Source of the DNA: Deltaproteobacteria bacterium | Lineage (GTDB): Bacteria; Myxococcota_A; Polyangia; Polyangiales; Houyiibacteriaceae | DNA length: 64,000 bases | Assembly: GCA_034670305.1 (NCBI GenBank) | Contig: JAXMNT010000002.1 | Coordinates: 213,985-277,984 of the forward strand | Reading direction: 5' to 3' | Shown: positions 21,336 to 58,300 of the stretch, piece by piece | Position numbering within the stretch: position 1 is the stretch's first letter | Layout of the letters: each line of letters opens with the position of its first letter | Made by a program: the position numbers and the translations under genes | Notes under the pieces: model-generated | What the model saw: the letters and a program-made list of their open reading frames with translations, nothing else | The model's database searches: none | What the model was told of the DNA's origin: nothing

Positions 21336-21546
21336 AGCCGACCGGGCGAAGCGGAGCGCAGCGAAGCGAGTCTCACCGGACGGGTTTTGGGGGCCGCCAA
21401 AGGAATCAGGATGAAGCTTTGATTCCCAAAGCCTGGCCGATCTATGCTCGCGCCGCTGAGGTGGGCATGTCAGGTCAAATGACCGAGTGTGAGTTCCTCC
21501 TGCAGACGTTGATTCAGACGTGCGCGGGCCTGGGACGGAGGAAGCT

Positions 21547-22314: not shown

Positions 22315-22337
22315 CGACCGGTTCGGCGCTGGCTGCG

Positions 22338-22438
22338 GGAACCGCAGTGCTGGCCTCCGGAACCGCAGTGCTGGCCTCCGGAACCGCAGTGCTGGCCTCC
22401 GGAACCGCAGTGCTGGCCTCCGGAACCGCAGTGCTGGC
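22338..22438 (+). repeat. 21-bp tandem repeat GGAACCGCAGTGCTGGCCTCC
   Basis: Four perfect units plus a 17-nt partial fifth; intergenic. Confidence 0.95.
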
Positions 22439-22469
22439 TCTGGAAGGCACAGCGCGCTACCGTCCCTCG

Positions 22470-23051
22470 GTGATCATTCGCAAGGCTGCGTTGCGGCCGG
22501 TGCCGAAATGGGCGGTGGTGGAAGCGCACACCATTCATGCGGTCGAGTCGGAACTCGACGAGGGCGACGACTCCCTGCAGGACACCCTCGACCGCGCCTT
22601 CTCGGAGCTGGATCGACGGCAGCCGATCGTCGCCGAATGGCTGGCGGATCAACTCGCGCAAACCCGCGACGAGCTCGTTCAGTCCCTGGGCTACTTCCTC
22701 TCGGTCACCGTCTACCTCGCGTTCCGCGACGCGTTCCCGACCCGCCTGCACGGGGTGGACGAATCGGGCCTGCGCATGGCGCGCGAGACGCTCTCGGCCG
22801 ACGAAGAGATCCGCGCCGCCGACCCGACCGAGATCCTCGACAGCGACGACATCCTCGCGATGAGTCAGCCCGCGCTCATCGCGTTCGTGCAGCATCACGT
22901 CGACGAAGCGCTCGAACAAGGCGAAGGCGAGATCGATCTCGACGAACTCGAGCGCGTGTACCGGTCGATCTTGGTTCAAGTGATCGCCATGAGCCATTCG
23001 GTGGCCTCGCCGAGCGGACAACTCGGTCCGTCCCGGGACATGCTCGCGTGA
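22470..23051 (+). CDS. Hypothetical acidic helical protein
   Basis: GTG22470 with TACCGT 6 nt upstream; two QP-containing helical segments; GTGA overlap with next gene. Confidence 0.65.
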   Translation: MIIRKAALRPVPKWAVVEAHTIHAVESELDEGDDSLQDTLDRAFSELDRRQPIVAEWLADQLAQTRDELVQSLGYFLSVTVYLAFRDAFPTRLHGVDESGLRMARETLSADEEIRAADPTEILDSDDILAMSQPALIAFVQHHVDEALEQGEGEIDLDELERVYRSILVQVIAMSHSVASPSGQLGPSRDMLA

Positions 23052-23992
23052 ACACGCGCGCCACCGGTTGGGCGCTGGCCCTTCTGTTGGCGACCGGGTG
23101 TGTGGTCGAAGAGACCGGCCGCATCCAGCAGCCCATCGCGGCGTACTGCGTCGCGGAGGTGCGGGGCGTGGGACCGGTCGACGTGGAGACGGACTACCTG
23201 CCCAACGTCGTGAACTGCGAGAACGGGGGCGCGGCGTTCGAGGCGCTCAAAGCCCAGGCGATCGCGGCGCGCACGTACCTCTACTACAAACTGGATTCCG
23301 CTGGTTCGATCGCCGACGGCACCAGCGACCAGGTCTACTCGTGCGGTCGCACGCCACGCGAAGAACACTACGAAGCGGTGCGACAGACGGCAGGCATCGT
23401 GCTGCAGTACACCGGCGAGACCATCGCCGGGTTCTTCGTCGCCGGGTCGCGTCAGATGGGCCCGAGCTGCCGCGGGGGCATGGACGACCCGACCAACACC
23501 GAGCGCTACGTGACCTACAACGAAGGCCGCAGCGGCGACGACGTCGAGCAGACCACGCTCGGCTGGGTGAACCCGCGCAACATCTACAACCGCGGTTGTT
23601 TCTCCCAGAATGGCTCCCACTGTTTGGCGGGATCCGGCTGGGAAGCGCTCGACATGGTGCGGTTCTACTACGGCGACGACATCGAGATTGAAATCGCCGA
23701 AGGCGCATGCGTCGATCCACCGGTCCTCGATGCGGGCGTCGACGCGGGCGTCGATGCGGGGCTTGTCCCAACCGATGCTGGAACGAACGAAGACACCGGG
23801 GCCGCCGAAGATGCGGGAACCGAAGTGGACGCGGCGGCCAGCGACGCGGCGACCGTCGGCGTCATCGAACCGCGGCCTGGCGCGCGACCGATCGCGTCCG
23901 GTGGCTGCGCGGTCGGATCCGATTCTGCCGGTTCCGAGAGCGGCGCCCTACTCTTCTTCGCGGTGCTGCTCTTCGGTCGTCGACGCCGGTAG
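23048..23992 (+). CDS. SpoIID/LytB-domain exported protein with MYXO-CTERM-like tail
   Basis: Lipobox ATGC; YLPNVV..E, EALKAQAIAARTY, SDQVY, FYYG; tail GGCAV...hydrophobic...RRRR. Confidence 0.85.
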   Translation: MNTRATGWALALLLATGCVVEETGRIQQPIAAYCVAEVRGVGPVDVETDYLPNVVNCENGGAAFEALKAQAIAARTYLYYKLDSAGSIADGTSDQVYSCGRTPREEHYEAVRQTAGIVLQYTGETIAGFFVAGSRQMGPSCRGGMDDPTNTERYVTYNEGRSGDDVEQTTLGWVNPRNIYNRGCFSQNGSHCLAGSGWEALDMVRFYYGDDIEIEIAEGACVDPPVLDAGVDAGVDAGLVPTDAGTNEDTGAAEDAGTEVDAAASDAATVGVIEPRPGARPIASGGCAVGSDSAGSESGALLFFAVLLFGRRRR

Positions 23993-27891: not shown

Positions 27892-28932
27892 ATGTCCTCC
27901 TCACTCCCACCAAAAAAACGACCACTCCGGCTCCGACCGGACAACTTCACGCCCCGCACTCGGACCCCGTGGGGCGGCGCCCGGATCACCGAGACCTACA
28001 AACGCGGCCTCGCGCCCGCCCAAGTCGTGGGCGAATCGTGGGAGTTCAGCGTGGAACCGGACTTTCCGAGCCAGACCGAATCGGACGGCCCACTCCCGGC
28101 GCTGATCGCCGCCGACCCCGACGGGTTGGTCGGCCGAGGCCACGACTCCACGGCGTTGCTGGTGAAGCTCCTCGACGCGGCGGCACCGCTCTCAGTGCAG
28201 ATCCACCCCTCGGACCGAGACCCGGCGCTTGCCGAAGACGAGAGCGGCAAACCCGAGACCTGGTACGTGCTCGACGCCGACGAGGACGCCGCGCTCTACC
28301 TGGGCTTTCTCCCGGGCGTCACCGAAGCGGAAGTGCGGGGCTGCATCGAAGCGGGCGGTGCGCTCGACGCGTTGCTGCAGCGGGTGGTGGTCGAGCCAGG
28401 GGACTTCTTCGTCATCGAAGCGGGAACGCCCCACGCGGTGGGCGCGGGCCTGACGCTGGTGGAACCCCAGCGGGTCTTGCCGGGCAAGCGCGGCCTCACC
28501 TACCGATACTGGGACTGGAACCGCCGCTACGACGATCAGGGCGTGCAGCACCCGAGCGGCGCCCCGCGAACCTTGCACCTCGAGCGGGCCCTCGCGGTCA
28601 CGGATTGGAGCGGCGCGTCGAGTGCGCTCGACACCGCACGCACCCATCGAGGGGTGCCCGACACAGCCGGCGCGCCCTCGCGAGTCGCGCTCTCGGGCGC
28701 CTTTCCTTGGGTGGCGGTCGAACGGCTGGCGGGCACCGGCGCGCTCTCGCTCGACCTCCCCGACCATCTTCACGCCCTCACCGTCGTCGGCGGGTCGTTG
28801 CGCCTCGAAGGCCCCGACTTCGACGTCCGAGCTCGAATGGGAGAAACGGTCGCGCTTCCAGCCGCCTTGCCGGGACTGCGGGTGCACCTGGAGGGGGCGC
28901 TCGCCCTGCTCTGTTCGACCGAGGGTGCCTGA
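27892..28932 (+). CDS. Class I mannose-6-phosphate isomerase-like cupin
   Basis: PWGG, GESWE, LLVKLLDA...LSVQIHP, KPETW, AGTPHA, TYR..DWNR. Confidence 0.85.
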   Translation: MSSSLPPKKRPLRLRPDNFTPRTRTPWGGARITETYKRGLAPAQVVGESWEFSVEPDFPSQTESDGPLPALIAADPDGLVGRGHDSTALLVKLLDAAAPLSVQIHPSDRDPALAEDESGKPETWYVLDADEDAALYLGFLPGVTEAEVRGCIEAGGALDALLQRVVVEPGDFFVIEAGTPHAVGAGLTLVEPQRVLPGKRGLTYRYWDWNRRYDDQGVQHPSGAPRTLHLERALAVTDWSGASSALDTARTHRGVPDTAGAPSRVALSGAFPWVAVERLAGTGALSLDLPDHLHALTVVGGSLRLEGPDFDVRARMGETVALPAALPGLRVHLEGALALLCSTEGA

Positions 28933-28978
28933 CGCCCGCTTGACGTCGCGGGGCCGTTGAACAATCACCAGCCCTACC

Positions 28979-29722
28979 TTGGCCTCTGACTCCTCCTCCG
29001 CTTCGGCGCGTCCCGTTCAGCCGCGCGTGTCGATCATCATCCCGATCTACAACGAAGAAGCGATTCTTCAGACGGCCGTCGTCGACCTGGTCGACCGGCT
29101 CTCCGAGTTCGACTGGCCCTACGAGCTGATCCTCGCCGAGAACGGTTCCACCGACCGCACTGTCGAGATCGCGAACCAGATGGCCGAACGGTTCCCGCAG
29201 GTCCACAGCGCGAGCGTCGGCGAGCCGAACTACGGCCGTGCGCTCAAAGAAGCGATCCTCCGCGCGAGTGGTGAGTTCGTCATCTGCGACGAGATCGATC
29301 TCTGCGACACCGACTTCTACCGCCGCGCGATGGCGGTGCTTGAGACCGGCGCCGCCGATCTGGTCGTCGGGTCCAAAGTCATGGGCGGCGCAAGCGACGA
29401 ACGTCCGGTGATGCGGCACGCCGCGACCATCGTGCTCAACGGCATGCTCCGGGTCGCGCTGGGTTTCACCGGCACCGACACCCACGGACTCAAAGCCTTC
29501 CGCCGCGCGCCGCTCGTCGAGGTCGCCCGCCAGTGTCTGGTGGACAAGGATCTGTTCGCGAGCGAGTTCGTGATTCGCGCCGAGCGGGCGAGCATCCGCA
29601 TCGAAGAGATCCCGATTCGGGTGCTCGAAAAGCGCCCGCCCTCGATCGGTCTGCTCCGGCGTGTGCCGAACGTGCTCAAGGGCATGGCGCGCCTCTTCGT
29701 CGCGATCCGCATCAAGGGATAG
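28979..29722 (+). CDS. GT2 glycosyltransferase (polyprenol-phosphate/DPM1-like)
   Basis: [31 protein letters not shown]. Confidence 0.88.
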
Positions 29723-29750
29723 CGCGCGCAGCGCGCGGCGAAGGAACACG

Positions 29751-30683
29751 ATGGGAGAGAGACTCGCCGCGGTGTCGATCGACCTCGACGAGATCCCCTG
29801 TTACGCCGCCATTCATGGCATCGAACTCGACGACGCCTCGTCGCACGCCATCTACCGTCACGCCCTTGCCCGCTTCGAACGTCTGTTCGACGACCTCGAT
29901 CTGCGCGCGACCTTTTTCGCGATCGGTCAGGACATCGACGACGAGAACGCGCCGAAACTCCGGCGCCTCTCGGACGCCGGGCACGAGGTGGCCAACCACA
30001 GCCTCTCGCATCTGTACGACTTGAGCCGCCGGACCGAAGACGAAGTCCGCTACGAGATCCGGGCCGGCGCAGACCTCATCGAAACCGCCACTGGGATCCG
30101 GCCCGTCGGCTTCCGCGCCCCCGGCTACACGATCACCCGGACGGTGTTCGACGCGCTGGAGATCGAAGGGGTCGCGTACGACTCGAGCGTCTTCCCCTGC
30201 CCGGCGTACTACGGCGCGAAGGCCGCTGCGATCGGCGCCTACGCGGTCCGCGCGAAACTCGGCCGCGGACGCCCGAGCCACAGCGTGATCGACGACCCCC
30301 GGGTCTTGCGTGCGCCGGCAAACCCCTACCGCATCGGTCGCCCCTACTGGACGCGCGGCGCGGGTCTCTTGGAGCTCCCCATCGGCGTCACCCGCGGCGT
30401 CCGCCTGCCCTTCATCGGCACGAGCGTCGCCCTCGCCGGCGCCCGCGGCGCCGACTGGCTCGCGCGCGCCATGGTCGGCCGCCCCCTCGTCAGTCTGGAA
30501 CTGCACGGCATCGATCTCGCCGACGCGGATCGAGACGGGCTGCAGCAACTCCGCCCTCACCAACCGGACCTGCGCCGCACCGCCGAGTTCAAAGAAGCGA
30601 GCCTCCGCGCCGCCATCCTCCGGCTGCGCCGCGCCGGCTACACCTTCGCAACCTGCGCCCAAGCCGCCGACCACTTCGCGTAG
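29751..30683 (+). CDS. Polysaccharide deacetylase family protein
   Basis: [30 protein letters not shown]. Confidence 0.88.
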
Positions 30684-42064: not shown

Positions 42065-44083
<2,019 letters not shown>

Positions 44084-44281
44084 GCTGATCTCCCTGCGGG
44101 AGAAACCCCCGCGCCGGGCCGGGCTTAGCATGATACGCCGGAGATCAGCAACGATTCGGCCTCAGCCCTGTGGGATGGCTCCGGGCCCGTCGGGCCAGGG
44201 TGCTCGGGGGCGCTCGGCTGGGCCACTCTGGCCAGCGCGCTGTCGGCCCGTCCGCCTTCCGCAGAAGGACCGAACCGCGGC

Positions 44282-46126: not shown

Positions 46127-47650
46127 GTGAATCGCCGGCGTGGCAGCAAGACCCACTTCCGCGCCCTCATTCTTTTTGTGGTGGGCGCCCTCTCCGGAGT
46201 GGCTTGCGGCGGTGACAGCGCACCACCGGCGCCTCTGCTCGACGCCGCGCGCCCGGATTCGGCCTCCGTCGATGCCGCCCCGATCGACGCATCGCCGAGA
46301 AGAGATGCGGCCACCCTTCCCCCGGCAGACCTGGAGGTCGTGCTGCCGTACTTGGGCCCTGCCGTGGAGGAGGTACGGACGATCCGCGGCGCCCCAGGCC
46401 GGCTCGACGTGCACTTCTCGATTGATACGACCGGTTCCTTCGGTGGAGAGATCGACGCCCTTCAATCCGAGCTCTCCGCCCGCATCATCCCCGCCATCGA
46501 AGACCGCGTGGCCGATGTGGCGTTTGGGGTGTCGCGGTTCGAAGACTTCGATCTCCCGCCCTTTGGCAGCGAGGGCGACGATCCATTCGAACTGTTGAGC
46601 GCCATCACCACCGATCGGGGCCGCACCCGGGCCGCGGTGGCGCGCCTCGACAACCCATTCGGCGCAGGGGGCGATGGCCCCGAATCTGGGTACGAGGCCC
46701 TGTTCCAGATCGCGACCGGCTTCGGCTACACGTCGGATGGGATCGTCTGGATCCCACCGCAGCGGGAGAGCCGCATCGGCGGCGTGCACTTCCGTCCCGG
46801 CGCCATCCACGCGGTCGTGCATGCCACCGACGCCCCCTCCCACGTGCCCGGAGACTACGCCCCGGCGCTGCCTGGAACCCATGGGTTCGCGGACGTGGTG
46901 GAGGCGATGGCGGCGATCGACGCGGTGGTGCTCGGGATCTCGAGCCACGACCGCGCCCGGAGCCAACTCGAGTCGCTCGCGTTGACCACCGGCGCCCACA
47001 TTCCCGCAACCTCGACCCAGTGTGCGACCGGTCAGGGCGGCGAGACGCACCCGGCCCGGAGCGGCCGGTGTCCCCTTGTCTTCGATGTGCAGAGCGACGG
47101 CACCGGCCTGAGCGCCGCGATCGTCGACGGCCTGGTCGGTCTGCTCGACACCGTCACGTTCGACGAGGTCTATGGCCAGGCCGTGGACGATCGGCTGGGG
47201 TTCGTCCGAGCCATCGAAGCCATCTCTGCGGTTCCGCCCGCGGACGTCACGGCGCCGGACGTGGTGGACCGCCGCCCGGTCGATGGGGTGCTCGACACCT
47301 TTCTTGGCGTGCGCATCGACACCCAGCTCGACTTCGCGGTCCGGCTGCGGAACGAGACGCTTCCCCCCGCGGACTACGATCAGGTGTTCCGACTGTCCGT
47401 TCAGATCGTGGGGGACGCGCTGGTGCTCGACGAGGTCACGATCCGCATCGTCGTGCCCCGCGGGCGGCTCGACGCGGGTCCGCGGGATGCCGGGCCCGAC
47501 GCGATGGATGCAGGCCCCGTCGACGCGCCCGCCGACGCTGCGGGGGATGCCCCGGATGCGGAAGTGGATGCGGAAGTGGACGCTGATGTGGGCGACGCGG
47601 ATGCCGGCCTGGACGCAGCCCTGGATGCTGGGGTGGATTCTGGCGCATGA
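46127..47650 (+). CDS. VWA/integrin-beta-like lipoprotein (CglD-like)
   Basis: Lipobox VAC; DTTGS MIDAS-like, GGDGPES..EAL, FRPGA, TDAP; DAG-rich tail. Confidence 0.7.
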   Translation: MNRRRGSKTHFRALILFVVGALSGVACGGDSAPPAPLLDAARPDSASVDAAPIDASPRRDAATLPPADLEVVLPYLGPAVEEVRTIRGAPGRLDVHFSIDTTGSFGGEIDALQSELSARIIPAIEDRVADVAFGVSRFEDFDLPPFGSEGDDPFELLSAITTDRGRTRAAVARLDNPFGAGGDGPESGYEALFQIATGFGYTSDGIVWIPPQRESRIGGVHFRPGAIHAVVHATDAPSHVPGDYAPALPGTHGFADVVEAMAAIDAVVLGISSHDRARSQLESLALTTGAHIPATSTQCATGQGGETHPARSGRCPLVFDVQSDGTGLSAAIVDGLVGLLDTVTFDEVYGQAVDDRLGFVRAIEAISAVPPADVTAPDVVDRRPVDGVLDTFLGVRIDTQLDFAVRLRNETLPPADYDQVFRLSVQIVGDALVLDEVTIRIVVPRGRLDAGPRDAGPDAMDAGPVDAPADAAGDAPDAEVDAEVDADVGDADAGLDAALDAGVDSGA

Positions 47651-48012
47651 TGCCGCGCATGGATCGCGGGATGCTTTCTGGACTCCTGTGCGCTGCGCTC
47701 CTGCTGCCCTCCACGGCCGCCTTGGTCGCGTGCGGTGGGTCCGACGTGGGCGGTATCCACGCCCGCATGGGATTCAGTGAGGAGCGTGGGCTGCGGGTGG
47801 TGGAGGTGGAGCCGGACGGTCCGGCGGCCCGTGCCGGACTGCGCGAAGGCGATCGCATCGTGACCATCGAGGGCGAAGCGGTTCGGGAGATGAGCCTCGA
47901 CGAACTGCTGAGCCAACTTCGGGGTCCGGTCGGTTCGCACGTGACGCTGGAGATCTTTCGCGACGGCGAACTCCAAGAGCTCGAGGCGCAGCGAACCCCC
48001 TACCGCCGCTGA
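47647..48012 (+). CDS. Single PDZ-domain lipoprotein
   Basis: Lipobox LVAC; GGI, GPAARAGLREGDRIV.I.G, LRGPVGS.V.L. Confidence 0.85.
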   Translation: MMPRMDRGMLSGLLCAALLLPSTAALVACGGSDVGGIHARMGFSEERGLRVVEVEPDGPAARAGLREGDRIVTIEGEAVREMSLDELLSQLRGPVGSHVTLEIFRDGELQELEAQRTPYRR

Positions 48013-48026
48013 TCTCCAACGCCGTT

Positions 48027-48239
48027 TCAGCCGGGGGAGCGCTCGCTCCACCACGCTGCGAACTCGTCGAAGCCGATGAGGCCCGACTCGTCGGAATCGA
48101 TCACATCGAAAAGCTTCTCGACCTTGGCCGGCTCCATCTTCGATCCAAGCCGTTCCAACAGCTGTCGGAACTCGATCAGGTCGATCCGGCCGTTCCCGTC
48201 TTGGTCACACTCGTCAAACTGAGTTCGAACGTCGCTCAT
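48027..48239 (-). CDS. Two-EF-hand calcium-binding protein
   Basis: DQDGNGRIDLIE and DSDESGLIGFDE loops. Confidence 0.9.
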   Translation of the reverse strand: MSDVRTQFDECDQDGNGRIDLIEFRQLLERLGSKMEPAKVEKLFDVIDSDESGLIGFDEFAAWWSERSPG

Positions 48240-48316
48240 CCCGCGGACTCTACATCAACCCGGCGAGAGACAAAGCGCGTCGAACTTTGGTCACCCACCT
48301 GATAGGGTGGAGCCGC

Positions 48317-48808
48317 ATGACTGCCTTGCCATCGGACCTCCTCCAAGTGCACCTCGAAGAGGGAAGCGCACGACTTTCGGTCGCGTCGGAGACCTACCCT
48401 CTCGACGCGCTCTACGCAGCCGCGTTCACGTTCCTCGATCGGTGTTTCGTCCACCTCGACAAGGTGGACGAACGGTACGTTGTCACGCTGGCCCCCAAGC
48501 CAGGCAAGGATCCGGTGGACGAGTCCAACCTCCAGACCCTCGCCGGCACGTTCGCCAACGAGCTGCTGTCCGCCGCGTGGCGACAGAAGCTCACCGAGCG
48601 CAACGGGGCGACGATCGAGCTCGTGACCCGCACCGCGTTCAGTGGTGCCGCGGGGCCGCCCAGCCTCGACGACCTCGACGACTTCGACTTCTCGGAAGAG
48701 CCCTTTCACGATCCGCTCGGCATCGCCGAGAGCTGGGAAGAGAAGTACGGCAAGGACAAGACCGCCAAGCCGGAGTCCGACGACTCGGGAAGCACGGACC
48801 CCAGTTGA
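48317..48808 (+). CDS. hxsD: His-Xaa-Ser system protein HxsD-like
   Basis: YPLDALYAAAF.FLDRCFVHL...FANELL...R..L...N..I.ELV..AF recalls the HxsD pattern; next to an HxS-repeat peptide. Confidence 0.8.
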   Translation: MTALPSDLLQVHLEEGSARLSVASETYPLDALYAAAFTFLDRCFVHLDKVDERYVVTLAPKPGKDPVDESNLQTLAGTFANELLSAAWRQKLTERNGATIELVTRTAFSGAAGPPSLDDLDDFDFSEEPFHDPLGIAESWEEKYGKDKTAKPESDDSGSTDPS

Positions 48809-49014
48809 GGGAGGTCCGCTTTCACCGCGAGGTCTACGAGGGCACCTGCGTCGACTCGGCGATCGGCACCCTCGCCACCTTTGGCACCTTCGAACAGTCC
48901 GAAGATGAGACGCACTGGATCGTCCAGGTCACGGCCAAGACGCCCGCCCGAGAGCTGCGTCTGGCCCGGGAATTGGGCAATTTCGCACTCGGCTACCAGC
49001 TCAGCAAGGACTGA
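48805..49014 (+). CDS. Second, short HxsD-like protein (69 aa)
   Basis: TTG overlapping hxsD stop; F..EVY...VD.AI...ELGNFAL parallels the HxsD core. Confidence 0.65.
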   Translation: MREVRFHREVYEGTCVDSAIGTLATFGTFEQSEDETHWIVQVTAKTPARELRLARELGNFALGYQLSKD

Positions 49015-49107
49015 GCGGGACCGGCCCCAGCGGCCCACGTCCACAGGTTGGGGTCTTTCGGCCGCCGGGAGATTGTTTCCTGCCTGGTTCCGACGTAGCA
49101 TTGACCT

Positions 49108-49407
49108 GTGGCCGACGACGACGACATCCCCAGCTTCAAGCCTGAAACCCTGGTTCGCCTGACCGACCGTCAGCAACGCATCGTCGCTGAAGGCGATCCC
49201 GATGCTTTCGCGGACGGCCCGTCGTTCGATGGCAGCGGCGCGCATCTGCTCGGGCAGCACGGCAGCCACGGCTCGCATGGCAGCCACGGCTCGCACGGCA
49301 GCCACGGTTCGCACGGAAGCCACGGTTCGCACGGATCGCATGGCTCCCACGGATCGCATGGCTCCCACGGATCGCACGGCTCCCACGGTTCGCACGGCAG
49401 CTGGTAG
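49108..49407 (+). CDS. His-Xaa-Ser repeat precursor peptide, HxsA-like, (HGS)x16-W
   Basis: 50-aa acidic leader ending HLLGQ, then 16 exact HGS triplets with varied synonymous codons, then Trp-stop. Confidence 0.9.
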   Translation: MADDDDIPSFKPETLVRLTDRQQRIVAEGDPDAFADGPSFDGSGAHLLGQHGSHGSHGSHGSHGSHGSHGSHGSHGSHGSHGSHGSHGSHGSHGSHGSW

Positions 49408-49482
49408 CCGACCCTCGGCGGGCGGACGCTGAGCCGACGCCGCACCCTCGATGCCCAAGCTGACGTTTCACCCACCGGGTCG

Positions 49483-52400
49483 ATGAGCCAGGTTCTCTCC
49501 CCCACCGACATCGAGTCGTTCGTCGAGCGTGGGTACGTGGTGGTTCGCAACGCGTTCCATCGCGAAGAAGCGCTCCGCTTGGTCGAGCAGTCCTTGGTGG
49601 GGCTCGACCCACCACCGCGTGCTTCGATTCGTACCCCGACGGGCGATCGCACGATCGGCCTCGAAGACGGGTTCGTTCCCTCGGATCCCAGCACGTGGCC
49701 CGAGCCTACGCTCAACCTTCACACCCGGCGCCCGCTCCAACTTCAGCAGTTCGCCCCGCGGCTTTCCACCGCGGTCCGGCAACTCGTGGGCGACGGGTTG
49801 CTGCACCGATCGACGATTGGTCACCTCTGGAAGCTGAACGCCGACTTCGCACCGGGTCCCGCACCGCCGGTGAGCGAGAAGTGGATCCCGGACAGCTGGC
49901 ACATCGATCACCCCGGGGCGCCGACCACCTTCGAGGGGCGCACCGATGCGGTCGTGCTCTTCATGCTGTGGTCCGACATCGGCCCCTGCGGTGGGGGCAC
50001 CCGATTCCGGCCCGAGTCCATCGACCTGCTCACTGCGTCGATCGAGTCGAACGGCGCGGTCGATGTCCAGGGGGACGCATTCCGCGCAGCGCTCACGAAG
50101 GCCGGCCCGATTCAAGAAATCACCGGCCGCACGGGGGATGTCTTCGTGATGCACGGCTGGCTCTTCCACTCCGTCGCGCTCAACTACGCGCACAAGATCC
50201 GGGTGCTCGAGAACTCGATGGTCGAGACCGCGTACCCGCTGAACTACTCGCCCCACAATCCGTCTCCCTCGCCGGTCGAGCGCTGCATCATTCGTCGACG
50301 CAAGAACACGGACGACGACTACGGCGTCTTTGCCCGCACGGCCCGCGCGTTCATCGGGACGCACGCCGACCGGATGCTCGATCCTGATTCTGCGAAGGGC
50401 GCCCCACAAGAGCCGGCGCCATTGGACCGCGCGCTGCTCGCCGCCTGGGCCCATCGAACCGCGGGGGCCGTGCGACGGGTGCGCCCGCCGCGGTCCCAGC
50501 TCGTGCGCTGGGCCATCCGCACACTCCGCGACACGTTCGTCATCGGCACGTTGAGCACGCGCACGGACCCGACATTCTCAGGGCTGATGCGTGGCTCGGG
50601 CAACGTGGAGACGCGGCAGACGTTTCTGGTCGCGCTGCTCCGCGCCGCCGGACGCCAGGCCGAACTTCACCGGACCCACCACACCATTCGCATCCGCGAA
50701 GGCGACGAGTGGTTCTCCGTCGGTGGCAGCGGGGAGCTCCGACGCGAGAACACGGCGGACGAGGACTACCTGCAGCTGCCCTGGCCCGACGAGCACCCCC
50801 CGCTGGATTCGTTGACCGACGTCGATCGACCTTCGCAACCCGACCCCTGGGCCCACCTCGACCCGGACGTCGCCGAGTTCTTCGATCTGCGCTTGCAGCA
50901 CCTGGACCGGCCCGGCCGAGCGGGGCCCGCGATGTACCGAGCGCTCTGCAGCAGCAACACGGTCGGTCCGTGGGCCAGAGCGCTCTCCGGGCGCGCCCAG
51001 GCTCGGCAGCTCCACCCTCCGCCCCAATGGACGCGCGCGCTGTTTCGCGGCACACGCGTCTCAGCGGTGTGGGCGGAGGAAGTCGGCCGGGAGTTCCGCG
51101 TGTGGGTGGCGGTCAAGACGACGCGCGAACCGGTCGTGGTCTGGTTCCATAGAAAACAGGTCCACCGCGCCGGACGCGTGGTGCACGGGTTCTACGAACG
51201 CTGGGCCGCGGATCTCGAGCGCACCCGGACGCGGCTCCGATGGCTCAATGCGGTGGTCTCGGGCATGTCCGACGATCGTTACGCCGCGTCCGACGCCGAA
51301 CGCGCACTCGCGTGCATGGTGCAGTCGTTCAAGAAGCCGATCGGCGACGACGACCAAGAGCCGACGCCGACGTCGGGTTCCGATCGAGCCGTTCGCCTCT
51401 GCCGCGCGGTCCGCTCCGCGCAGTGGGCTCAGGTGTTCTCCGTGGATCCATCGGAGGAGCTTCCTGCGTGGATCCAAGTCGTGCTCTCCTTGTTGAAGGG
51501 CGACATGGACCGTGTGCGGACGATGGAAGAGCCCAGCGGGCCCGCCGCAGCGACCTCGGTGTTCGTGGGCCACATGCTCATGCAGGCAGGCTTCGACTCG
51601 GCCGCGTTCCGTTGGTTCGAGCATGGCGAACCGGCGCTTCCCAAGAACGCCCGCCGGTCGATGCTTCATCTTCGGACCCAACTGGCCCAGCGACTCGGAC
51701 GCACGGCGGAAGCCCGGACGCTCGCCCGCCACTTGGTCCTGTCGGCGGAGGGCGCCGAAGCGCTCGCCTCTGGTGCGGAGGAGTTGATCTCGCTGGGCGC
51801 GTTCGGTGACGCCACGGCCGTGCTCGAAGAGGCAGTGACACGGCACCCTGGGTCGATTCAGGTCCGCCGACTGTTCGCGCGCCTGTGCGCGTGGAGCGGC
51901 GACCTGCCCCGACTCGATGCGTTGATCAACGACCTGCCGCCGGAGCCGGCCACCCAGAAGCTCCGCGCGATCTGGCTGGCGTGCCACGAGCGGTACGAAG
52001 AAGCGCTGCACCTGTTCGAAGAGATCGTGGAGCACATCGACACCGAGGAATGCCGACTCTGGCTCGCCGAGCTCCATCTTCGCGTGGGCCACCCCCCCAA
52101 GCGCGCGCACTACGAACTCGAGCGTTCCCGGCTGCGCTCTCAGAATGCGGCCCACTTGATGCTCGCCGTGTGGATCGACGATGCCAACTGGGGACCGAAG
52201 TTGCTGTCCTGGTACGACTACCTCGATGGAACACCTCCCCGGCCAACCGAGGAGAAGGATCTCGAGCGCTCGCGGGTGTTCTGTCGAGAAGCGCTCCGGT
52301 GGTTCCGCGGCAACCGAACCGACCGGCTGACCCGCGTGCTGCCTGCGAGTTCGACGTCCCCACGAGACCTCTCGTACGTAGAGCCTCCGGAAGAAGACAG

Positions 52401-53178
52401 TGTGCTCTCGAGCCGCAACGCGTCCGCCAACGCGGTGCGGTCGGTCGCCACCCGCCCCATCGCCGAGGCACAACAGACGCTTGCAGCGCTGGCCGAGCGT
52501 TACCCCAAGTCTCCCCACCCCCTCTGCTACGGGGGAGAACTCAAACTCTGGCTCGGCGACCTCGACGGCGCGTTCGCAGATTTCGAGACCGCCATGGGCC
52601 GTGGCAACACCCGGTGGGCCTACGTCGGGAAGGCCGCGGTGCACTCGCTCCGCGGCGAACTCGAAGCCGCGATCTCGGAGTTCACCCAGTGCGCGCGAAA
52701 CCACGAAGCGGTGCTCGGCGCCACGACCCATGTGTACCGGGGCGAACTGTTCCGTCGGAACGGAGATCACGACCGGGCGATCGAAGACCTTCGCTCGGCC
52801 GTGGGCTCCAAGCCCGGGCGGGTCGCCGCATGGATGAACCTCGCGCTCTCGCTGGATGCGACGGGCGAGTCGGCCGAGGCGGGCGCGATCTTCGACAAGC
52901 TCAAGGCGTGGGTGCCGAGACTCTTGTGGGATGTCCGCGCGAGCTTGGACCCGGAGTTGCCCTGGCCACTGCCACCGGACTCGATGCGGCCCCTGTTCGA
53001 ACACGCCCTGGTCATGATGCGCGGCAACCGTTCGAGTCACCTGGTGACATATTTCACGGCGGACGGCGCCTTCCGCGTGACGCAAGACGCGCAGCAATGG
53101 GCCGACCGGGTGAAGAAGCACGACGCGTTGATCCTCCATGTGCTGACCGAGCAACTGAACCGCGCCGAACGCTGGTAG
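49483..53178 (+). CDS. PhyH-type Fe(II)/2OG dioxygenase - transglutaminase-like - TPR fusion (1231 aa)
   Basis: F.ERGYVVVRNAF; WHID (H140, D142); GDVFVMH.WLFH (H229); R240; LVALLRAAG segment; C-terminal TPRs. Confidence 0.8.
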   Translation: MSQVLSPTDIESFVERGYVVVRNAFHREEALRLVEQSLVGLDPPPRASIRTPTGDRTIGLEDGFVPSDPSTWPEPTLNLHTRRPLQLQQFAPRLSTAVRQLVGDGLLHRSTIGHLWKLNADFAPGPAPPVSEKWIPDSWHIDHPGAPTTFEGRTDAVVLFMLWSDIGPCGGGTRFRPESIDLLTASIESNGAVDVQGDAFRAALTKAGPIQEITGRTGDVFVMHGWLFHSVALNYAHKIRVLENSMVETAYPLNYSPHNPSPSPVERCIIRRRKNTDDDYGVFARTARAFIGTHADRMLDPDSAKGAPQEPAPLDRALLAAWAHRTAGAVRRVRPPRSQLVRWAIRTLRDTFVIGTLSTRTDPTFSGLMRGSGNVETRQTFLVALLRAAGRQAELHRTHHTIRIREGDEWFSVGGSGELRRENTADEDYLQLPWPDEHPPLDSLTDVDRPSQPDPWAHLDPDVAEFFDLRLQHLDRPGRAGPAMYRALCSSNTVGPWARALSGRAQARQLHPPPQWTRALFRGTRVSAVWAEEVGREFRVWVAVKTTREPVVVWFHRKQVHRAGRVVHGFYERWAADLERTRTRLRWLNAVVSGMSDDRYAASDAERALACMVQSFKKPIGDDDQEPTPTSGSDRAVRLCRAVRSAQWAQVFSVDPSEELPAWIQVVLSLLKGDMDRVRTMEEPSGPAAATSVFVGHMLMQAGFDSAAFRWFEHGEPALPKNARRSMLHLRTQLAQRLGRTAEARTLARHLVLSAEGAEALASGAEELISLGAFGDATAVLEEAVTRHPGSIQVRRLFARLCAWSGDLPRLDALINDLPPEPATQKLRAIWLACHERYEEALHLFEEIVEHIDTEECRLWLAELHLRVGHPPKRAHYELERSRLRSQNAAHLMLAVWIDDANWGPKLLSWYDYLDGTPPRPTEEKDLERSRVFCREALRWFRGNRTDRLTRVLPASSTSPRDLSYVEPPEEDSVLSSRNASANAVRSVATRPIAEAQQTLAALAERYPKSPHPLCYGGELKLWLGDLDGAFADFETAMGRGNTRWAYVGKAAVHSLRGELEAAISEFTQCARNHEAVLGATTHVYRGELFRRNGDHDRAIEDLRSAVGSKPGRVAAWMNLALSLDATGESAEAGAIFDKLKAWVPRLLWDVRASLDPELPWPLPPDSMRPLFEHALVMMRGNRSSHLVTYFTADGAFRVTQDAQQWADRVKKHDALILHVLTEQLNRAERW

Positions 53179-53301
53179 CCCCGGGCCTCGGCCCGATCCT
53201 CAGCCAAAACCGACCCAAGCGGGCCACGCCGACGCGGCGCACCGACACCGCGCGCGCCCCTCGATTGACGGCCCCGATTCGGCGCTGTTATCCTGTTCCC
53301 C

Positions 53302-53922
53302 GTGACCCACCCACGTTTGCTCAAGCGCCGCGAAATGATTGCAGGATTGGGCGCGGTTGCCGCTGGCACCGCGGTGGTCCTCGGGGGAGCCCGCACCGTC
53401 CGTGCGCTCGGCCCGACCGACCCGCGAGGCGCGGCCAGTCTCGACGCCGCTGGGGAGACATCGCTGGAACACGGCTACGACGCCCACGTGCAAGAGGCGC
53501 TGCGCGCGCATGGCCTCGAGGCGCCTGACGCCGAGGTCCGACAACTCTTCGCCGGGCTGCGGCCGGGCACCGTGCTCGAGCAGAAGGTGCGCATCGACGC
53601 CATCTACGGCGTACGCGCGGGCGGCATCCCGGTGGTGCTTCGCGCCAACGGCGGGTCGTTCCTCGTCGAGGTCTTCCGCAACCACACGTCGGATGCCCCG
53701 CTCGTCGTGGCTGGTGCATTCGGCCTCTTCCTCTCGTCCCGCGGAGCGGAGGTCGATCCGGTTGGCCACGCTGCGACGCTCGTGCTCGGGCGCGCGCTCC
53801 AAGGCGCCGATTCGATCCCGTCTGCGCTCCGCGCCCGGTGCGAGGTCCCCCGCGACTTCATCCAGACCTACGCGGTGCCGGTCGAGCCGGTGGCCGGCGC
53901 CGGCCCCGACAGCGTTCTCTAG
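53302..53922 (+). CDS. Tat-signal hypothetical protein
   Basis: LKRREMIAGLGAVAAG twin-arginine signal; no other motif recognised. Confidence 0.65.
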   Translation: MTHPRLLKRREMIAGLGAVAAGTAVVLGGARTVRALGPTDPRGAASLDAAGETSLEHGYDAHVQEALRAHGLEAPDAEVRQLFAGLRPGTVLEQKVRIDAIYGVRAGGIPVVLRANGGSFLVEVFRNHTSDAPLVVAGAFGLFLSSRGAEVDPVGHAATLVLGRALQGADSIPSALRARCEVPRDFIQTYAVPVEPVAGAGPDSVL

Positions 53923-53995
53923 GACCAGCCCACTGCGAGCATCAACGCGCGGCCCGTCGGCCGCGCGTTTGTGGTTGGCACCCAACGAAGTGGGC

Positions 53996-55252
53996 TCAAG
54001 GGCAGCGGCGGCGGCGGATGAGTTCGCCGAGCCGGGTGGTGATGCCGGTGAGCGCGTTGGCGAAGTTCTCGTCGCAGATGGACTGCACCACGCCCGAGGG
54101 CCCGAACGCGCGCACCGCTTCGACGGTTCGGATCGCCGGAACCGCGAACCCGACGCCGACCCGATCGCACGCCGGCAACAGAAACCCGGGGCGCCGCGGG
54201 TTCGGTCGAATCTGCATGCGCTCGTCGGCGAGCAACGCGTCGTAGTCGATGTCGGTCGGGTCGCGCACCAAGTCCGGTGGCACGCCGGTGATGGCGGCAA
54301 TGAGCAAGTCGTTCGGATCCGACTTGGCCATGCGCATGCCTTCCACGAACCGTTCGACCGGGGTGAGCGCTTCGGGGAACAAGATGCACCGCTGGTTGCC
54401 GCGCGGATCGGCATCCCATGGGTAGGTCTCGCTCAGGGGGTTGAAGAGTTCCGGATCCGCCACCGAGCAGTCGTCTTCGTCGCTCACGAGGATCACTGCA
54501 AGCACCGCGTCGTCCCTCACGAACCCGGCGTTCGCACCGTCGCGGTGGGCGTCGCCTTCGAGAAACGACAGCACACCGGCTGGCAACACCGCCTTGAGCG
54601 CCGCTTCGAGCGGCTGTTCCAAACCGCACCCGGAGGTGCCCACCCGCGCCACGCACCCGAACTCGGAGACGAACATGTCCGGCCGCATCAGCTCGGGTCG
54701 GAAGCGCAGAAACGAGGGGACCATGCCCGGACAGCCCGCGCCGCCGGCACGCGTGCGGTGTACTCCGTCCGAACCGTTGTTCGGACGGATCTGACAGCCG
54801 CCGAGTTCGAAGCCGGCCGACCCGAGGTTGGTCGTCACCACCGCGACTTGCAGATCGCTCACTGGTTGCACATCCGGTCGGCCGTCGCGGTCGAGGTCGC
54901 CGGTCACGAGCACTTCGACCATCACCGGGAACTGCTCGGCGAGCGCGGCCTGTTCTTCGGCCATCGAGCCCGAATCGTCGATGACGAAGAGCAGGTCGAC
55001 CAAGAGCGGCTCGGGGTCGACCGGCGGCGGGCCCGCGTCGCATGGCACATCCGGGAGCGGACCGTCGAACCCGGCATCGGTCAGCACGTCGGGTGGCGCG
55101 TCGATGGGTGCGTCCCGCGCCGCATCGACACCGCCATCCGTCGACGCATCCCCGCCGATGCGGTGCGAGCGGTAACAACCGAACAGGAGCACGCACGCCA
55201 GCAGGGACGAGGTCACCACGCCAACGCTCGCCGACCCCACCCTGGGCGACAC
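53996..55252 (-). CDS. VWA-like myxobacterial lipoprotein
   Basis: LFGC lipobox; DLLFVIDDSGSM.EEQ, GCGLEQPLEA, SDEDDCS, SIC; start uncertain. Confidence 0.75.
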   Translation of the reverse strand: MSPRVGSASVGVVTSSLLACVLLFGCYRSHRIGGDASTDGGVDAARDAPIDAPPDVLTDAGFDGPLPDVPCDAGPPPVDPEPLLVDLLFVIDDSGSMAEEQAALAEQFPVMVEVLVTGDLDRDGRPDVQPVSDLQVAVVTTNLGSAGFELGGCQIRPNNGSDGVHRTRAGGAGCPGMVPSFLRFRPELMRPDMFVSEFGCVARVGTSGCGLEQPLEAALKAVLPAGVLSFLEGDAHRDGANAGFVRDDAVLAVILVSDEDDCSVADPELFNPLSETYPWDADPRGNQRCILFPEALTPVERFVEGMRMAKSDPNDLLIAAITGVPPDLVRDPTDIDYDALLADERMQIRPNPRRPGFLLPACDRVGVGFAVPAIRTVEAVRAFGPSGVVQSICDENFANALTGITTRLGELIRRRRCP

Positions 55253-55353
55253 CGCGCTCAACAGGTTGGGCGACACGGCGTTGGGAGCCGCCGCGTGCGA
55301 CGCCACCGCCAACGACAGGTCTGCGCGTGCTGCCGCCGGAGCGGACCGGCCGG

Positions 55354-58300
55354 TCACATGTTCCGGCGGTACTGGCCGCCGACGTCGTAGAGCGCGTCGC
55401 TGATCTGGCCGAGCGAGCAGACCTTGGTGCACTCCATCAGCGCTTCGAAGAGGTTGCCGTTGTCGACCGCGACCTTCTGCAACGTCGCGAGCGCATCCGC
55501 CCGCACGGAGTCGTTGCGGGCGTGGAACGCGTTCAAGTTCGTGATGGCGAGGTTGCGTTCGTCTTCGGTGCTGCGGATCACCTCGCGGGGAATCACCGTC
55601 GGCGACCCCTCCGAGGAGAGGAAGGTGTTCACGCCGACCAAGGGGAGCTTGCCGCTGTGTTTGAGCGACTCGTAGTAGAGGCTCTCCTCCTGGATCTTAC
55701 TGCGCTGGTACATGCGCTCCATCGCGCCGAGCACCCCGCCGCGATCGCTGATGCGCACGAACTCGGCGTACACCGCTTCTTCGACGAGCTCGGTCATCTC
55801 GTCGATGACGAATGCGCCCTGGAGCGGGTTCTCGTTCTGCGAGAGCCCGAGCTCCTGATCGATGATCAGCTGAATGGCGAGCGCGCGGCGCACGCTCTCT
55901 TCGGTCGGCGTGGTGATGGCTTCGTCGTACGCGTTCGTGTGGAGCGAGTTGCAGTTGTCGTAGATCGCGTAGAGCGCCTGCAGCGTCGTGCGGATGTCGT
56001 TGAACGCGATCTCCTGCGCATGCAGCGAACGGCCGCTCGTCTGGATGTGGTACTTCAACTTTTGCGCGCGCTGCCCACCGCCGTAGCGCTGCTTGATCGC
56101 CTTCGCCCAGATGCGCCGCGCGACCCGGCCGATGACCGAGTATTCCGGGTCGAGCCCGTTGCTGAAGAAGAACGAGAAGTTCGGCGCGAAGTCGTCCACG
56201 CTCATGCCGCGCGCCAGGTAGTACTCGACGAACGTGAAGCCGTTCGCGAGCGTGAACGCGAGCTGGCTGATCGGGTTCGCGCCCGCTTCGGCGATGTGGT
56301 AGCCGCTGATGCTCACCGAGTAGAAACGCGTGACCCGGTGGTCGATGAAGTACTGCTGGATGTCGCCCATCATGCGCAGCGCGAACTCGGTGCTGAAGAT
56401 GCAGGTGTTCTGGGCTTGGTCCTCCTTGAGGATGTCCGCCTGCACCGTGCCGCGCGTGCTCGCGAGCGCGTGCGCTTTGATCTTCTCGTACACGTCCGCG
56501 GGGAGCACCTGGTCTCCCGTGACGCCGAGCAGCCGGAGCCCGAGCCCGTCGTTGCCTTCGGGCAGGTCGCCCGCATAGGTCGGCCGCGGCATGCCCTTGT
56601 CCGCGTAGATCGCAGCGATCTTGGCTTCGACCTCGGCCTCGAGCCCTTCGCGTTCGATGTACCGCTCGCACTGCTGGTCGATGGCCGCGTTGAAGAAGAA
56701 GCCGAGCAACATCGGCGCCGGCCCGTTGATGGTCATCGACACGCTGGTCGCCGGGTCGCAGAGATCGAACCCGCTGTAGAGCTTCTTCGCGTCGTCGAGC
56801 GTCGCGATCGACACGCCGCTGTTGCCGACCTTGCCGTAGATGTCGGGCCGGTGGTCCGGGTCTTCGCCGTAGAGCGTGACCGAGTCGAAGGCGGTGCTGA
56901 GCCGCTTCGCCGGCATGCCGCGCGACACGTAGTGGAACCGCTTGTTGGTGCGTTCGGGACCGCCCTCCCCCGCGAACATACGCGCCGGTGCTTCGCCGCT
57001 CCGCTTCAGTGGGAACACGCCCGCGGCAAAGGGGAAGTGTCCGGGCAGGTTCTCGGTCAGGCGCCAGCGGAGGATCTCGCGCCAGCTCTGAAAGCGCGGG
57101 AGGCACACCTTCGGGATGCGGTTCTTCGAGAGCGACTCGGTGGTGAGCGGCTGCTCGACGACCTTGCCGCGCACCTCGTAACGGAAGACATCGCCGCTGT
57201 ACTGCGCCTGCACCTCCGGCCACTCGCGGAGCAGCCGCCGGCAATCGGCGTCGAGCCGCTCGAGCAGTGCCGCGTAACGTTTGCGGAGCGTGACGACCTC
57301 GGGCGGATCATTCGCATGTTCGCCCGGATCGGAGAGCGGCACCGACGCGCCCTCGTCCTTCCGTCCCGCGTCCTCGCGAAGCGCCGCGATCGCACCGCGC
57401 AGTTGATCGAGCCGGTGCGCGAGCATGGACTGCGCGTCGACGAACGCGTCGTAGCGGTGCGCGTTCTCCACGATCTCGGCGAGGTACCGGACCCGGTCCG
57501 GCGGCACGATGTGCACCTTCTCGCTCGACCCTTCGCCGAGGTTGTCCGACGCGGGGAACTCGGCGTCGGTCTTCTCTTCGATCGCGACGAGCAGCGCGCG
57601 GAAGAGCGCGTTGGTGCCCGGGTCGTTGAACTGGGACGCGATGGTGCCGAACACCGGGAGCTCGTCGTCGCTGGCGTCGAAGCGCTGGTGGTTGCGTTTG
57701 TACTGCTTGCGCACGTCCCGCAGCGCGTCGAGCGAGCCGCGTTTGTCGAACTTGTTGATCGCGATGACGTCCGCGAAGTCGAGCATGTCGATCTTCTCGA
57801 GCTGCGTCGCCGCGCCGTACTCGCTGGTCATCACGTAGAGCGAGGCGTCGGAGAGATCGGTGATGGCGGTGTCGGACTGACCGATGCCGCTCGTCTCGAT
57901 GATGACCAGATCGAAGCCGGCGGCTTTGCAGAGATCCACCGCGTGCTGCACGTGGGCGCTCACCGCGAGGTTCGATTGCCGCGTCGCGAGCGAGCGCATG
58001 TAGACGCGCGGATCGTCGATCGCGTTCATGCGGATCCGGTCCCCGAGCAGCGCGCCACCGGTCTTGCGTTTGCTCGGATCGACCGAGAGCACGGCGAGCG
58101 ACTTGTCCGGCTGGTCGCGCAGGAACCGGCGCACCAGTTCGTCCACGAGCGAGCTCTTGCCGGCGCCGCCCGTGCCCGTGATGCCGAGTACCGGGACCAC
58201 CCGCTTGGCCGCGGAGGTCTTGCGCGCCGCTTCGCGAATCGCGTCGCCGGTCTCGCCGAAGTTCTCCGCGATCGTGATGAGCCGCCCGAGCACCTGGGGA

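Follow-up and report, generated by a model that had tools for sequence, protein, structure and literature searches.

A type-4 His-Xaa-Ser gene cluster with a PhyH-type oxygenase-TPR fusion and its links to radical-SAM maturation genes

Genes of the window cluster

His-Xaa-Ser (Hxs) systems, in which a peptide with HxS repeats is the substrate of modifying enzymes, were predicted long ago. Here we describe a cluster of genes of this type in a 64,000-nucleotide stretch of DNA (hereafter the window; positions 213,985 to 277,984 of contig JAXMNT010000002.1, assembly GCA_034670305.1) from a Deltaproteobacteria bacterium. The source assembly (7.93 Mb, 105 contigs, 96% complete; designated G000) was searched as a whole. 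Open reading frame (ORF) listing and family scans delimit five co-directional genes at 48317-53922 (5.6 kb), which encode two small proteins of the HxsD type, a precursor peptide of the HxsA4 family, a 1231-aa fusion protein containing an Fe(II)/2-oxoglutarate (2OG) oxygenase domain and tetratricopeptide repeats (TPRs), and a protein with a putative signal of the twin-arginine translocation (Tat) type (Table 1).

Table 1 Features of the cluster, its bounding genes and the second type-4 locus of the genome (window positions unless a contig is named).
Feature	Position	Strand	Basis
Divergent EF-hand gene	48027-48239	-	EF-hand_7, 59 bits
HxsD paralogue, 163 aa	48317-48808	+	TIGR03976, 48 bits (cut-off 50)
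HxsD-related small protein, 69 aa	48805-49014	+	NF038315, 52.2 bits (cut-off 41)
HxsA4-family precursor, 99 aa	49108-49407	+	NF038313, 75.9 bits (cut-off 55)
Precursor core, 16 His-Gly-Ser units and C-terminal Trp	49258-49404	+	Unit count in translation
Three-part fusion protein (Big), 1231 aa	49483-53178	+	One open frame; TPR matches over threshold
PhyH-fold Fe(II)/2OG oxygenase domain (predicted), aa 1-275	49483-50307	+	AlphaFold2 model, Foldseek
Probable degenerate transglutaminase-like core (low confidence), aa ~297-441	50371-50805	+	Model and structure search
TPR-partner part, aa ~566-1231	51178-53175	+	Pfam TPR_19; C-terminal block ...MMRGNRSSH..TYF...
Protein with a putative twin-arginine signal, 206 aa	53302-53922	+	KRRE and hydrophobic N-terminus
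Convergent MIDAS/VWA-like gene (metal-ion-dependent adhesion site/von Willebrand factor A)	53996-55432	-	Weak MIDAS-adhesin match; DDSGS motif readable in translation
Hxs4 locus on contig C3 (L018): X (-), Y, Z, 530-aa Cys-rich protein with signal-like N-terminus, HxsA4, HxsC4, 369-aa Cys-rich membrane protein	C3, 2487-13553

The first-pass annotation, made from the letters of the window, had proposed this layout, and at the level of the genes it was borne out. ORFs and family scans recovered the five co-directional genes between the divergent EF-hand gene and the convergent VWA-like gene. The precursor, described there as a leader followed by (HGS)16 and W, and its HxsD-related neighbour passed their family cut-offs, and the larger HxsD protein came within two bits of its own. 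The oxygenase with an HxD...H motif, a 2OG-binding Arg and TPRs was confirmed by a structure model, Foldseek, alignments and Pfam, and the fifth protein does begin with RR and a hydrophobic stretch. The statement that no CxxxCxxC protein lies within these bounds also held, as a regular-expression search gave no match in the seven proteins of the cluster and its two bounding genes. In the whole-assembly search, none of the radical S-adenosylmethionine (SAM) matches of the genome fell on C2, the contig holding the window, and PADLOC gave no match for any of the five window proteins. The gap between hxsA4 and the gene of the 1231-aa protein is 75 nt and that between the latter and the Tat gene is 123 nt, and a promoter-like site precedes the Tat gene.

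The precursor of 99 aa is composed of a 50-aa leader bearing a D-I-P-S-F motif, 16 HGS units and a final Trp. Apart from repeat-driven matches, the Pfam and NCBIfam scans found no domain in it. At least eight different 9-nt words encode the 16 units, with Ser codons AGC plus TCG/TCC, and Tandem Repeats Finder reported a period of 9 with matches of only 66%; the repeat thus appears to be kept at the protein level rather than being a fresh product of DNA slippage. In an alignment of 26 HxsA4 peptides, P8, L18, H51 onward and W99 are invariant, while a Cys in the first repeat that is at least 90% conserved is replaced by Gly in the window peptide. The 25 other peptides share its leader motif as well as the Trp end. 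Cys-less HxsA4 peptides also occur in ordinary hxsB contexts (L085 and L080), and this rules out the missing Cys as a marker of a separate pathway. Public contigs show joints in the repeat tract (49264-49325) at which the alignment goes back and extra HGS-coding letters appear; these are either repeat-number variants in the population or cross-matching to a second hxsA4 copy of the genome, described below.

The gene of the HxsD-related protein (HxsD_rel) has a TTG start that overlaps the hxsD stop by 4 nt (TTGA). The window HxsD is 56% identical to a second HxsD encoded on contig C55, which passes TIGR03976 at 51.5 bits, and the window HxsD_rel is 49% identical to its C55 copy. In a 16-row HxsD tree, the window copy sits on a long terminal branch (0.77), is weakly grouped (85/72) with the copy of genome G040, and belongs to no well-supported clade. 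The 206-aa protein gave no Pfam, NCBIfam or PADLOC match and no usable Atlas match. RR and a hydrophobic N-terminus, as read from the sequence, are found in it and in five of five distinct homologues inspected. The family is rare, with matches at E ≤ 1e-4 in 3 of 61 relatives, a count that includes G000.

The 1231-aa fusion protein

The match of the 1231-aa protein to PF05721 (PhyH) falls slightly short of the threshold (19.6 bits against 22, E = 1.2e-3), and its oxygenase domain was modelled by AlphaFold2 with a predicted local distance difference test score (pLDDT) of 93.2 and a predicted template modelling score of 0.90. Foldseek against the PDB retrieved the proline hydroxylase H11, GriE, EctD, SnoK and KanJ with probability 1.00, E values from 1.6e-8 and template modelling (TM) scores of 0.42-0.58. 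According to this model, the N-terminal domain is a double-stranded beta-helix fold of the PhyH type. The HxD...H triad and the 2OG-binding Arg are present as H140, D142, H229 and R240. H140 and H229 show no variation in an alignment of 83 sequences, in which D142 and R240 reach at least 90% conservation; all four residues are likewise invariant or at least 90% conserved in an alignment of 19 sequences. The Fe(II)/2OG site is intact at the level of these residues and catalysis is predicted. The window enzyme shares the fold, the triad and the Arg with the solved PhyH-type hydroxylases, but its identity to them is 13-20%, at the TM scores given above, and those enzymes are single-domain proteins that act on free small molecules. 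Unlike them, the family of the window oxygenase always occurs with a dedicated TPR protein, as a fusion or as the product of a neighbouring gene, and in most cases together with a transglutaminase-like domain.

The model of the middle part is mediocre (pLDDT 69). In a wide VIA-align search, nine of the ten top rows were transglutaminase or papain-like folds with Z values of 6.3-8.1, which lie within the noise range stated for the tool. Foldseek returned nothing at E ≤ 0.001 for this part (best E 0.41), and Atlas returned only leads below 0.9, the transglutaminase/papain-like one at 0.81. By our count in the alignment, the Cys of a C..H..D pattern is kept in 7 of the 17 homologues that cover the region; the 1231-aa protein lacks a Cys-His-Asp triad, since its residue in the Cys column is Val and it has no Asp in the D-A-W column. 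We assign the middle part, with low confidence, as a degenerate and non-catalytic transglutaminase-like domain.

The TPR matches exceed the Pfam thresholds (TPR_19, 55.4 against 25; TPR_14, 36.4 against 23.5; TPR_2, 35.6 against 27). The C-terminal 260 residues form a specific conserved block with an invariant ...MRGNRSSH..TYF... motif and are not generic TPR sequence. A word-indexed search gave 16 matches, none of which was a full-length relative; all are TPR proteins, and the best are stand-alone proteins of 720-800 aa with ~35% identity over residues ~566-1220. A full HMMER scan with residues 1-330 gave 379 relatives. The nearest of these share 34-39% identity with it, have lengths of mostly 530-650 aa and align to residues 1 to ~440. 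The oxygenase domain is C-terminal in many others, so that an order of TPRs followed by PhyH is frequent. Scans with the oxygenase alignment found only three relatives in the genome-contig collection and no relative in the metagenome collection. At loci L109 (9875-11752 and 11753-14005) and L110, which represent two genomes, the two halves of the window protein are encoded by adjacent genes on the same strand, and from this the 1231-aa protein is a fusion of a conserved two-gene module: a PhyH-fold oxygenase with the probable degenerate transglutaminase-like domain, followed by a dedicated TPR protein. A joint complex prediction of the PhyH domain, the TPR part and HxsA4 returned "no answer" with a score of 0.00.

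Aspartyl/asparaginyl beta-hydroxylase and collagen prolyl 4-hydroxylase are TPR-bearing protein hydroxylases, and 2OG oxygenases tailor ribosomally synthesized and post-translationally modified peptides (RiPPs), for example CinX of cinnamycin. Their working logic, in which a repeat domain holds the substrate and a 2OG domain hydroxylates it, resembles what the window enzyme may do. The likeness is an analogy, as these enzymes belong to other oxygenase subfamilies with no demonstrated homology to the window enzyme. Separately, one library protein of 1184 aa (P0029) joins a relative of the oxygenase and middle parts to a CxxxCxxC domain that by eye is of the HemN radical-SAM type, and this fusion suggests that the two enzyme classes may work together.

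Hxs4 genes elsewhere in the genome and in relatives

The canonical system (HXS) consists of hxsD-hxsB-hxsC-hxsA and defends Proteobacteria against phage (Li et al., Nat Commun 2026, PMC13128918). According to that report, HxsB and HxsC mature a 214-aa HxsA, including a change of +8 Da, HxsD is bound by HxsC, and the periplasm is the location of the mature product. The order D-B-C-A is found in 99.6% of the systems, and 99.7% of the systems are in Pseudomonadota. Among His-Xaa-Ser systems only the proteobacterial form has been studied, and the chemistry of the modification is still unsolved (PMC13128918).

The assembly contains a single true HxsB, encoded on C55 (519.3 bits against a cut-off of 370). 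Its gene is preceded by those of HxsD (51.5 against 50) and HxsD_rel (64 against 41), whose order and 4-nt overlap repeat those of the window. HxsC of the TIGR03977 type was not found at cut-off in the genome, the best match reaching 93.6 of 267.9 bits. A six-frame scan for HxS runs found exactly two peptides in the assembly, namely that of the window and a copy on C3 with 13 repeats. The C3 peptide is a second HxsA4 with (HGS)13 (91.6 bits), and HxsC4 is encoded directly 3' of it (NF038332, 567.9 against 500). Upstream of this hxsA4 lie three radical-SAM genes, designated X (634 aa), Y (1075 aa, with a B12-binding part) and Z (320 aa), after which comes the Cys-rich 530-aa gene. Judged from these profile matches, the genome holds a complete type-4 Hxs (Hxs4) set dispersed over three places, and the window is the piece without a maturase. 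In PADLOC, HxsB and HxsC4 gave weak matches to viperin models only. The genomes concerned abound in radical-SAM genes; only orthologue-level radical-SAM matches were given weight.

Some further features of these two contigs were observed. The 530-aa gene has at least seven paralogous stretches elsewhere in G000 and has homologues in the Hxs4 loci of relatives. Directly upstream of hxsD-hxsDrel-hxsB on C55 (L017) is a 244-aa gene (11340-12074, minus strand) with a sub-threshold match to HvfX (DoxX-like; 59 bits against 80), a family of Cu-binding RiPP maturation proteins. An ORF of 1232 aa near hxsB on C55 was considered as a paralogue of the 1231-aa protein and rejected, since the two are unrelated (BLASTP E 4.9); the ORF looks like a di-haem/MYXO-CTERM protein.

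The cut-offs of the NCBIfam type-4 families HxsA4 (NF038313), HxsC4 (NF038332) and HxsD_rel (NF038315) are thus passed by proteins of G000, and the suggestion in the first-pass annotation that the locus is a candidate new system is not supported, as the window peptide and the small HxsD-related protein match existing models. A full-text search for the type-4 names (HxsA4, HxsC4, HxsA2, HxsA3 and HxsD-like) found no paper. The NCBIfam type-4 models cover no oxygenase, TPR protein or Tat protein. New here are the three-part fusion itself and the observation that both a PhyH-type oxygenase, with its TPR partner, and a Tat protein are linked to the extended Hxs4 set.

Like the canonical system, G000 has a substrate with HxS repeats, a small HxsD and a true radical-SAM enzyme of the HxsB family. 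The differences are considerable. The window substrate is a 99-aa peptide of 16 HGS units with a Trp end, whereas the canonical HxsA bears a peptidoglycan-binding domain, which this peptide lacks; the genes stand on three contigs instead of in a contiguous operon; HxsC4 takes the place of an HxsC passing the TIGR03977 cut-off; and the sequence relatives of the genome are labelled Myxococcota, in contrast to the Pseudomonadota that carry the canonical form. No oxygenase is described for the canonical system in the available parts of PMC13128918. Export is a common theme, with a periplasmic product in the canonical system and a neighbour with a putative Tat signal here.

For comparison, a phylum sample of 401 genomes was searched, and 24 other HxsA4 loci were fetched with ~9.5 kb on each side. 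HxsA4 over cut-off occurs in 124 of the 401 genomes. A compact form, hxsD-hxsDrel-hxsB-hxsA4-hxsC4, recurs among the 24 loci (e.g. in G012, G420, G259 and G313), and 8 of them are lone peptides with no query genes nearby. In all five relatives checked, HxsB and an HxsC4-type gene lie apart from at least one hxsA4. The split arrangement is therefore ordinary in relatives, which removes the main reason for supposing that the oxygenase replaces HxsB and HxsC.

Y was found in 72 of the 401 genomes, with one match per genome in 71 of the 72. By our reading of the listings, ~64 of these 72 genomes also have HxsA4 over cut-off, and in a dozen genomes Y is located 2-47 kb from hxsA4. In many genomes (e.g. 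G214, G156, G362 and G179), Y matches that reach the N-terminal ~300 residues read through 1-6 TGA codons, while matches beginning near residue 300 contain none; the N-terminal part of Y is probably a separate gene or frame in those genomes and fused in G000.

Links of the oxygenase-TPR module to these genes were sought at 20 other oxygenase-domain loci (L110 and L112, which have the same arrangement, were counted once). Orthologues of the C3 genes X, Y or Z, with 39-64% identity over ~300-780 aa, stand beside oxygenase-TPR genes at four of them (L095, L100, L109 and L115). At L115, the genes of a TPR-PhyH protein, a radical-SAM/methyltransferase fusion and an X orthologue are arranged head to tail and co-directionally with gaps of less than 80 nt; the middle gene (G117:C102, 2510-4288, plus strand) encodes a radical-SAM domain fused to a class-I SAM methyltransferase. 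The distance between the module and hxsA4 is 12-22 kb in two other genomes. One 23-kb stretch of G025 carries TPR-PhyH (14994-17801), X/Y/Z (18507-23528), the 530-aa gene, hxsC4 (28594-29634), hxsA4 (29646-29903) and hxsB (from 37716). On one contig of G445, two TPR genes and a gene of the oxygenase and middle parts (PhyH-mid; 110669-116940) are followed by Y and Z (to 120423), and this group is 22 kb from hxsB-hxsA4-hxsD (136134-139740). A TPR-only gene resembling that part of Big lies directly upstream of hxsD-hxsB in G017 (L092), and another is ~12 kb from hxsA4 in G013.

Because Y has a single match in 71 of 72 genomes, we estimate that Y would fall within 10 kb by chance at ~0.3% per locus; for single-copy genes in genomes of 5-9 Mb, our estimate for a position within 10-25 kb is ~0.3-2% per locus. 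Placements of the module or the Tat family with the X/Y/Z block or with Hxs core genes are seen in several independent lineages (G025/G032, G445, G117, G017, G013 and G057/G420). Y is present in 6 of the 8 phylum genomes bearing the oxygenase family, compared with 72 of 401 overall, and by our own reading HxsA4 over cut-off is present in 13 of the 17 oxygenase-bearing genomes tested, compared with 124 of 401, although these include kin that are not independent.

No credible repeat precursor was found beside oxygenase-TPR genes at the loci examined. Two candidates were rejected: a Gly-His run at L096 lies inside a 781-aa protein, and the runs at L095 lie inside a 589-aa ORF. The 781-aa protein (G013:C34, 6146-8491, plus strand) has two internal Gly-His dipeptide runs, is encoded 0.8 kb from a TPR-PhyH gene and, as a guess, may be peroxidase-like.

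Relatives of the Tat protein have comparable neighbours. In G057 and G420 a homologue is encoded divergently beside a Z orthologue, inside X-Y-...-Z clusters, with hxsC4-hxsA4-hxsB-hxsD 9-16 kb away. In G040 the homologue is 8 kb from an hxsA4 trio and beside a radical-SAM gene, and on the metagenome contig L129 it is 2.7 kb from a Big-like TPR gene. A further homologue, on the 7.3-kb contig L120, has none of these Hxs4-linked genes nearby. As judged from gene neighbourhoods, relatives of each of the five cluster genes are found in company with the extended set of Hxs4 genes.

Proposed role of the oxygenase module and surroundings of the cluster

On balance, we lean towards the view that the window cluster is a satellite of a dispersed Hxs4 system and that the oxygenase-TPR module serves the extended Hxs4 network as an optional tailoring enzyme. 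HxsB, HxsC4 and perhaps X, Y and Z most likely act on the window peptide in trans, and the oxygenase looks like an optional extra rather than a replacement for the radical-SAM enzymes. In such a pathway, the radical-SAM maturases would act in trans, with hxsB supplied from C55 and hxsC4 from C3. Recruitment of the peptide, alone or in complex with HxsD, would fall to the TPR part. The oxygenase would oxidise side chains of the precursor, either unmodified or already modified by the radical-SAM enzymes, with hydroxylation as the simplest case, and the twin-arginine protein would be a periplasmic partner in the extended Hxs4 network. That the enzyme acts on HxsA4, and with what chemistry, is what we infer from these relationships. 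A more specific version, in which the fusion modifies the HGS units of the Cys-less HxsA4 one by one (e.g. through beta-hydroxylation of His or Ser), either together with the radical-SAM enzymes or after them, and the resulting hybrid radical-SAM/2OG poly-histidine peptide is received by the Tat-exported periplasmic partner, appears unlikely as a whole.

Several observations weigh against the view that we favour. None of the 24 other HxsA4 loci matches the 1231-aa protein within the fetched ~9.5 kb, none of the 20 other oxygenase-domain loci shows HxsD, HxsA4 or an HxS repeat in the fetched flank, and 16 of the 20 have no X/Y/Z orthologue nearby. The module is rare, being found in 8 of the 401 phylum genomes (E ≤ 1e-12) compared with 124 for HxsA4, so that Hxs4 works without it nearly everywhere. 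Genome G014 (96% complete) has a TPR-PhyH gene and no HxsA4 match at E ≤ 1e-8. In G040 the same hxsD-hxsDrel-hxsA4 trio is followed by genes of an aldehyde dehydrogenase, a DUF1688 protein and a uracil phosphoribosyltransferase, with no oxygenase. G000 is itself rich in radical-SAM genes, with 20 weak HxsC-like matches. Given the gaps on either side of the gene of the 1231-aa protein and the promoter-like site, the five genes need not form one operon.

In a rival explanation the oxygenase is a chance neighbour: the trio would be matured wholly in trans, and the oxygenase-TPR fusion and the Tat protein would be an unrelated protein- or peptide-hydroxylase pair with another substrate. We consider this explanation rather doubtful, but it stays substantial because the direct adjacency is unique to the window (0 of 24 HxsA4 loci and 0 of 20 oxygenase loci) and the module is absent from most Hxs4 genomes (8 against 124 of 401). 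The trio standing alone in G040, the TPR-PhyH fusion of G014 without a detected HxsA4, and the preference of the fold-closest solved structures for free amino acids and small molecules are all in line with it. Against it are the independent links of the module and of the Tat family to X/Y/Z and to Hxs core genes in several lineages, each placement being expected at well under 2% per locus by our estimate. In its strong form, the proposal of the first-pass annotation is that the oxygenase replaces HxsB and HxsC. In that form the oxygenase would stand in for both enzymes at the window paralogue and yield a radical-SAM-independent, poly-oxidised HGS peptide, and it would fit a cluster without a radical-SAM gene, a peptide with Gly where at least 90% of 26 HxsA4 sequences have the first-repeat Cys, and an HxsD that is the most divergent copy of its clade. 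However, HxsB (C55) and HxsC4 (C3) are encoded in the genome, trans arrangements are common, with dispersal in five of five relatives, Cys-less HxsA4 also occurs in the ordinary hxsB contexts noted above, and every link seen for the module involves radical-SAM genes, in one case as a fusion. This pattern points to the module working with radical-SAM enzymes and not instead of them, and we regard the replacement as improbable.

Eukaryotic TPR-bearing 2OG oxygenases hydroxylate folded proteins. The window enzyme could likewise act on a protein belonging to the system, with HxsD, a radical-SAM enzyme and the Tat protein as candidates, or the module could switch the pathway in response to oxygen or 2OG. 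Its links are mainly to the enzyme genes X/Y/Z rather than to precursor genes; in the window, though, the oxygenase gene is directly 3' of the precursor gene, and we give such a role very little probability.

The weaker form of the earlier proposal, that the oxygenase supplements HxsB and HxsC, is plausible: in extended Hxs4 regions of several lineages, relatives of the module and the Tat protein are repeatedly neighbours of the radical-SAM block, while direct adjacency to the peptide is unique to the window. The recurrence of PhyH-TPR homologues next to HxS peptides, suggested at that stage as a check, was absent as adjacency and present as same-contig links in G025 and G445. The occurrence of hxsB and hxsC elsewhere in the genome, which had been named as evidence against the proposal, was found in part, as the profile searches detected HxsB and HxsC4.

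On the reading that we favour, the window adds two facultative members, the oxygenase with its TPR partner and a putatively Tat-exported protein, to the Hxs4 set; the type-4 form is common in the phylum and occurs within a much larger enzyme set. With the precursor, the HxsD pair, the oxygenase and the Tat protein within 5.6 kb, the cluster is the simplest construct for testing. If the oxygenase modifies the peptide, it would offer an aerobic and easily assayed handle on a pathway whose radical-SAM steps resist reconstitution, and iterative oxidation of the HGS units, if true, would give a His-Xaa-Ser system an oxygen-dependent tailoring branch for the first time. If it does not modify the peptide, the locus would be an ordinary split copy of a catalogued system.

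The sequence of the cluster region was also compared with public contigs. A 20.7-kb contig of a public run covers 47000-56000 with no differences, and as the run is possibly the source sample this does not count as independent support. Two other marine-metagenome studies contain short contigs, with a likeness of mostly 85-95%, that cover parts of the hxsD end, hxsD-rel, hxsA4, the gene of the 1231-aa protein and the Tat gene; among them, no contig of the ~90%-identical relative bridges the junction between hxsA4 and the oxygenase. In contigs of ~90%-identical relatives from these two studies, the match ends exactly at the Tat stop codon (53922) and is followed by unlike sequence (53923-53995 in the window), so the junction downstream of the Tat gene may differ in the relative. 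In G012, a complete genome, ~4.9 Mb separate the orthologues of the flanking 478-aa and 565-aa genes, and in G004 these orthologues stand on separate contigs; the five genes may or may not have been inserted as one unit. Elsewhere in the window and outside the cluster, a gene at 42065-44131 (minus strand) encodes a 688-aa protein that in translation shows many Asp-rich repeats of the D-x-D-x-D-G type and an OmpA-like C-terminus.

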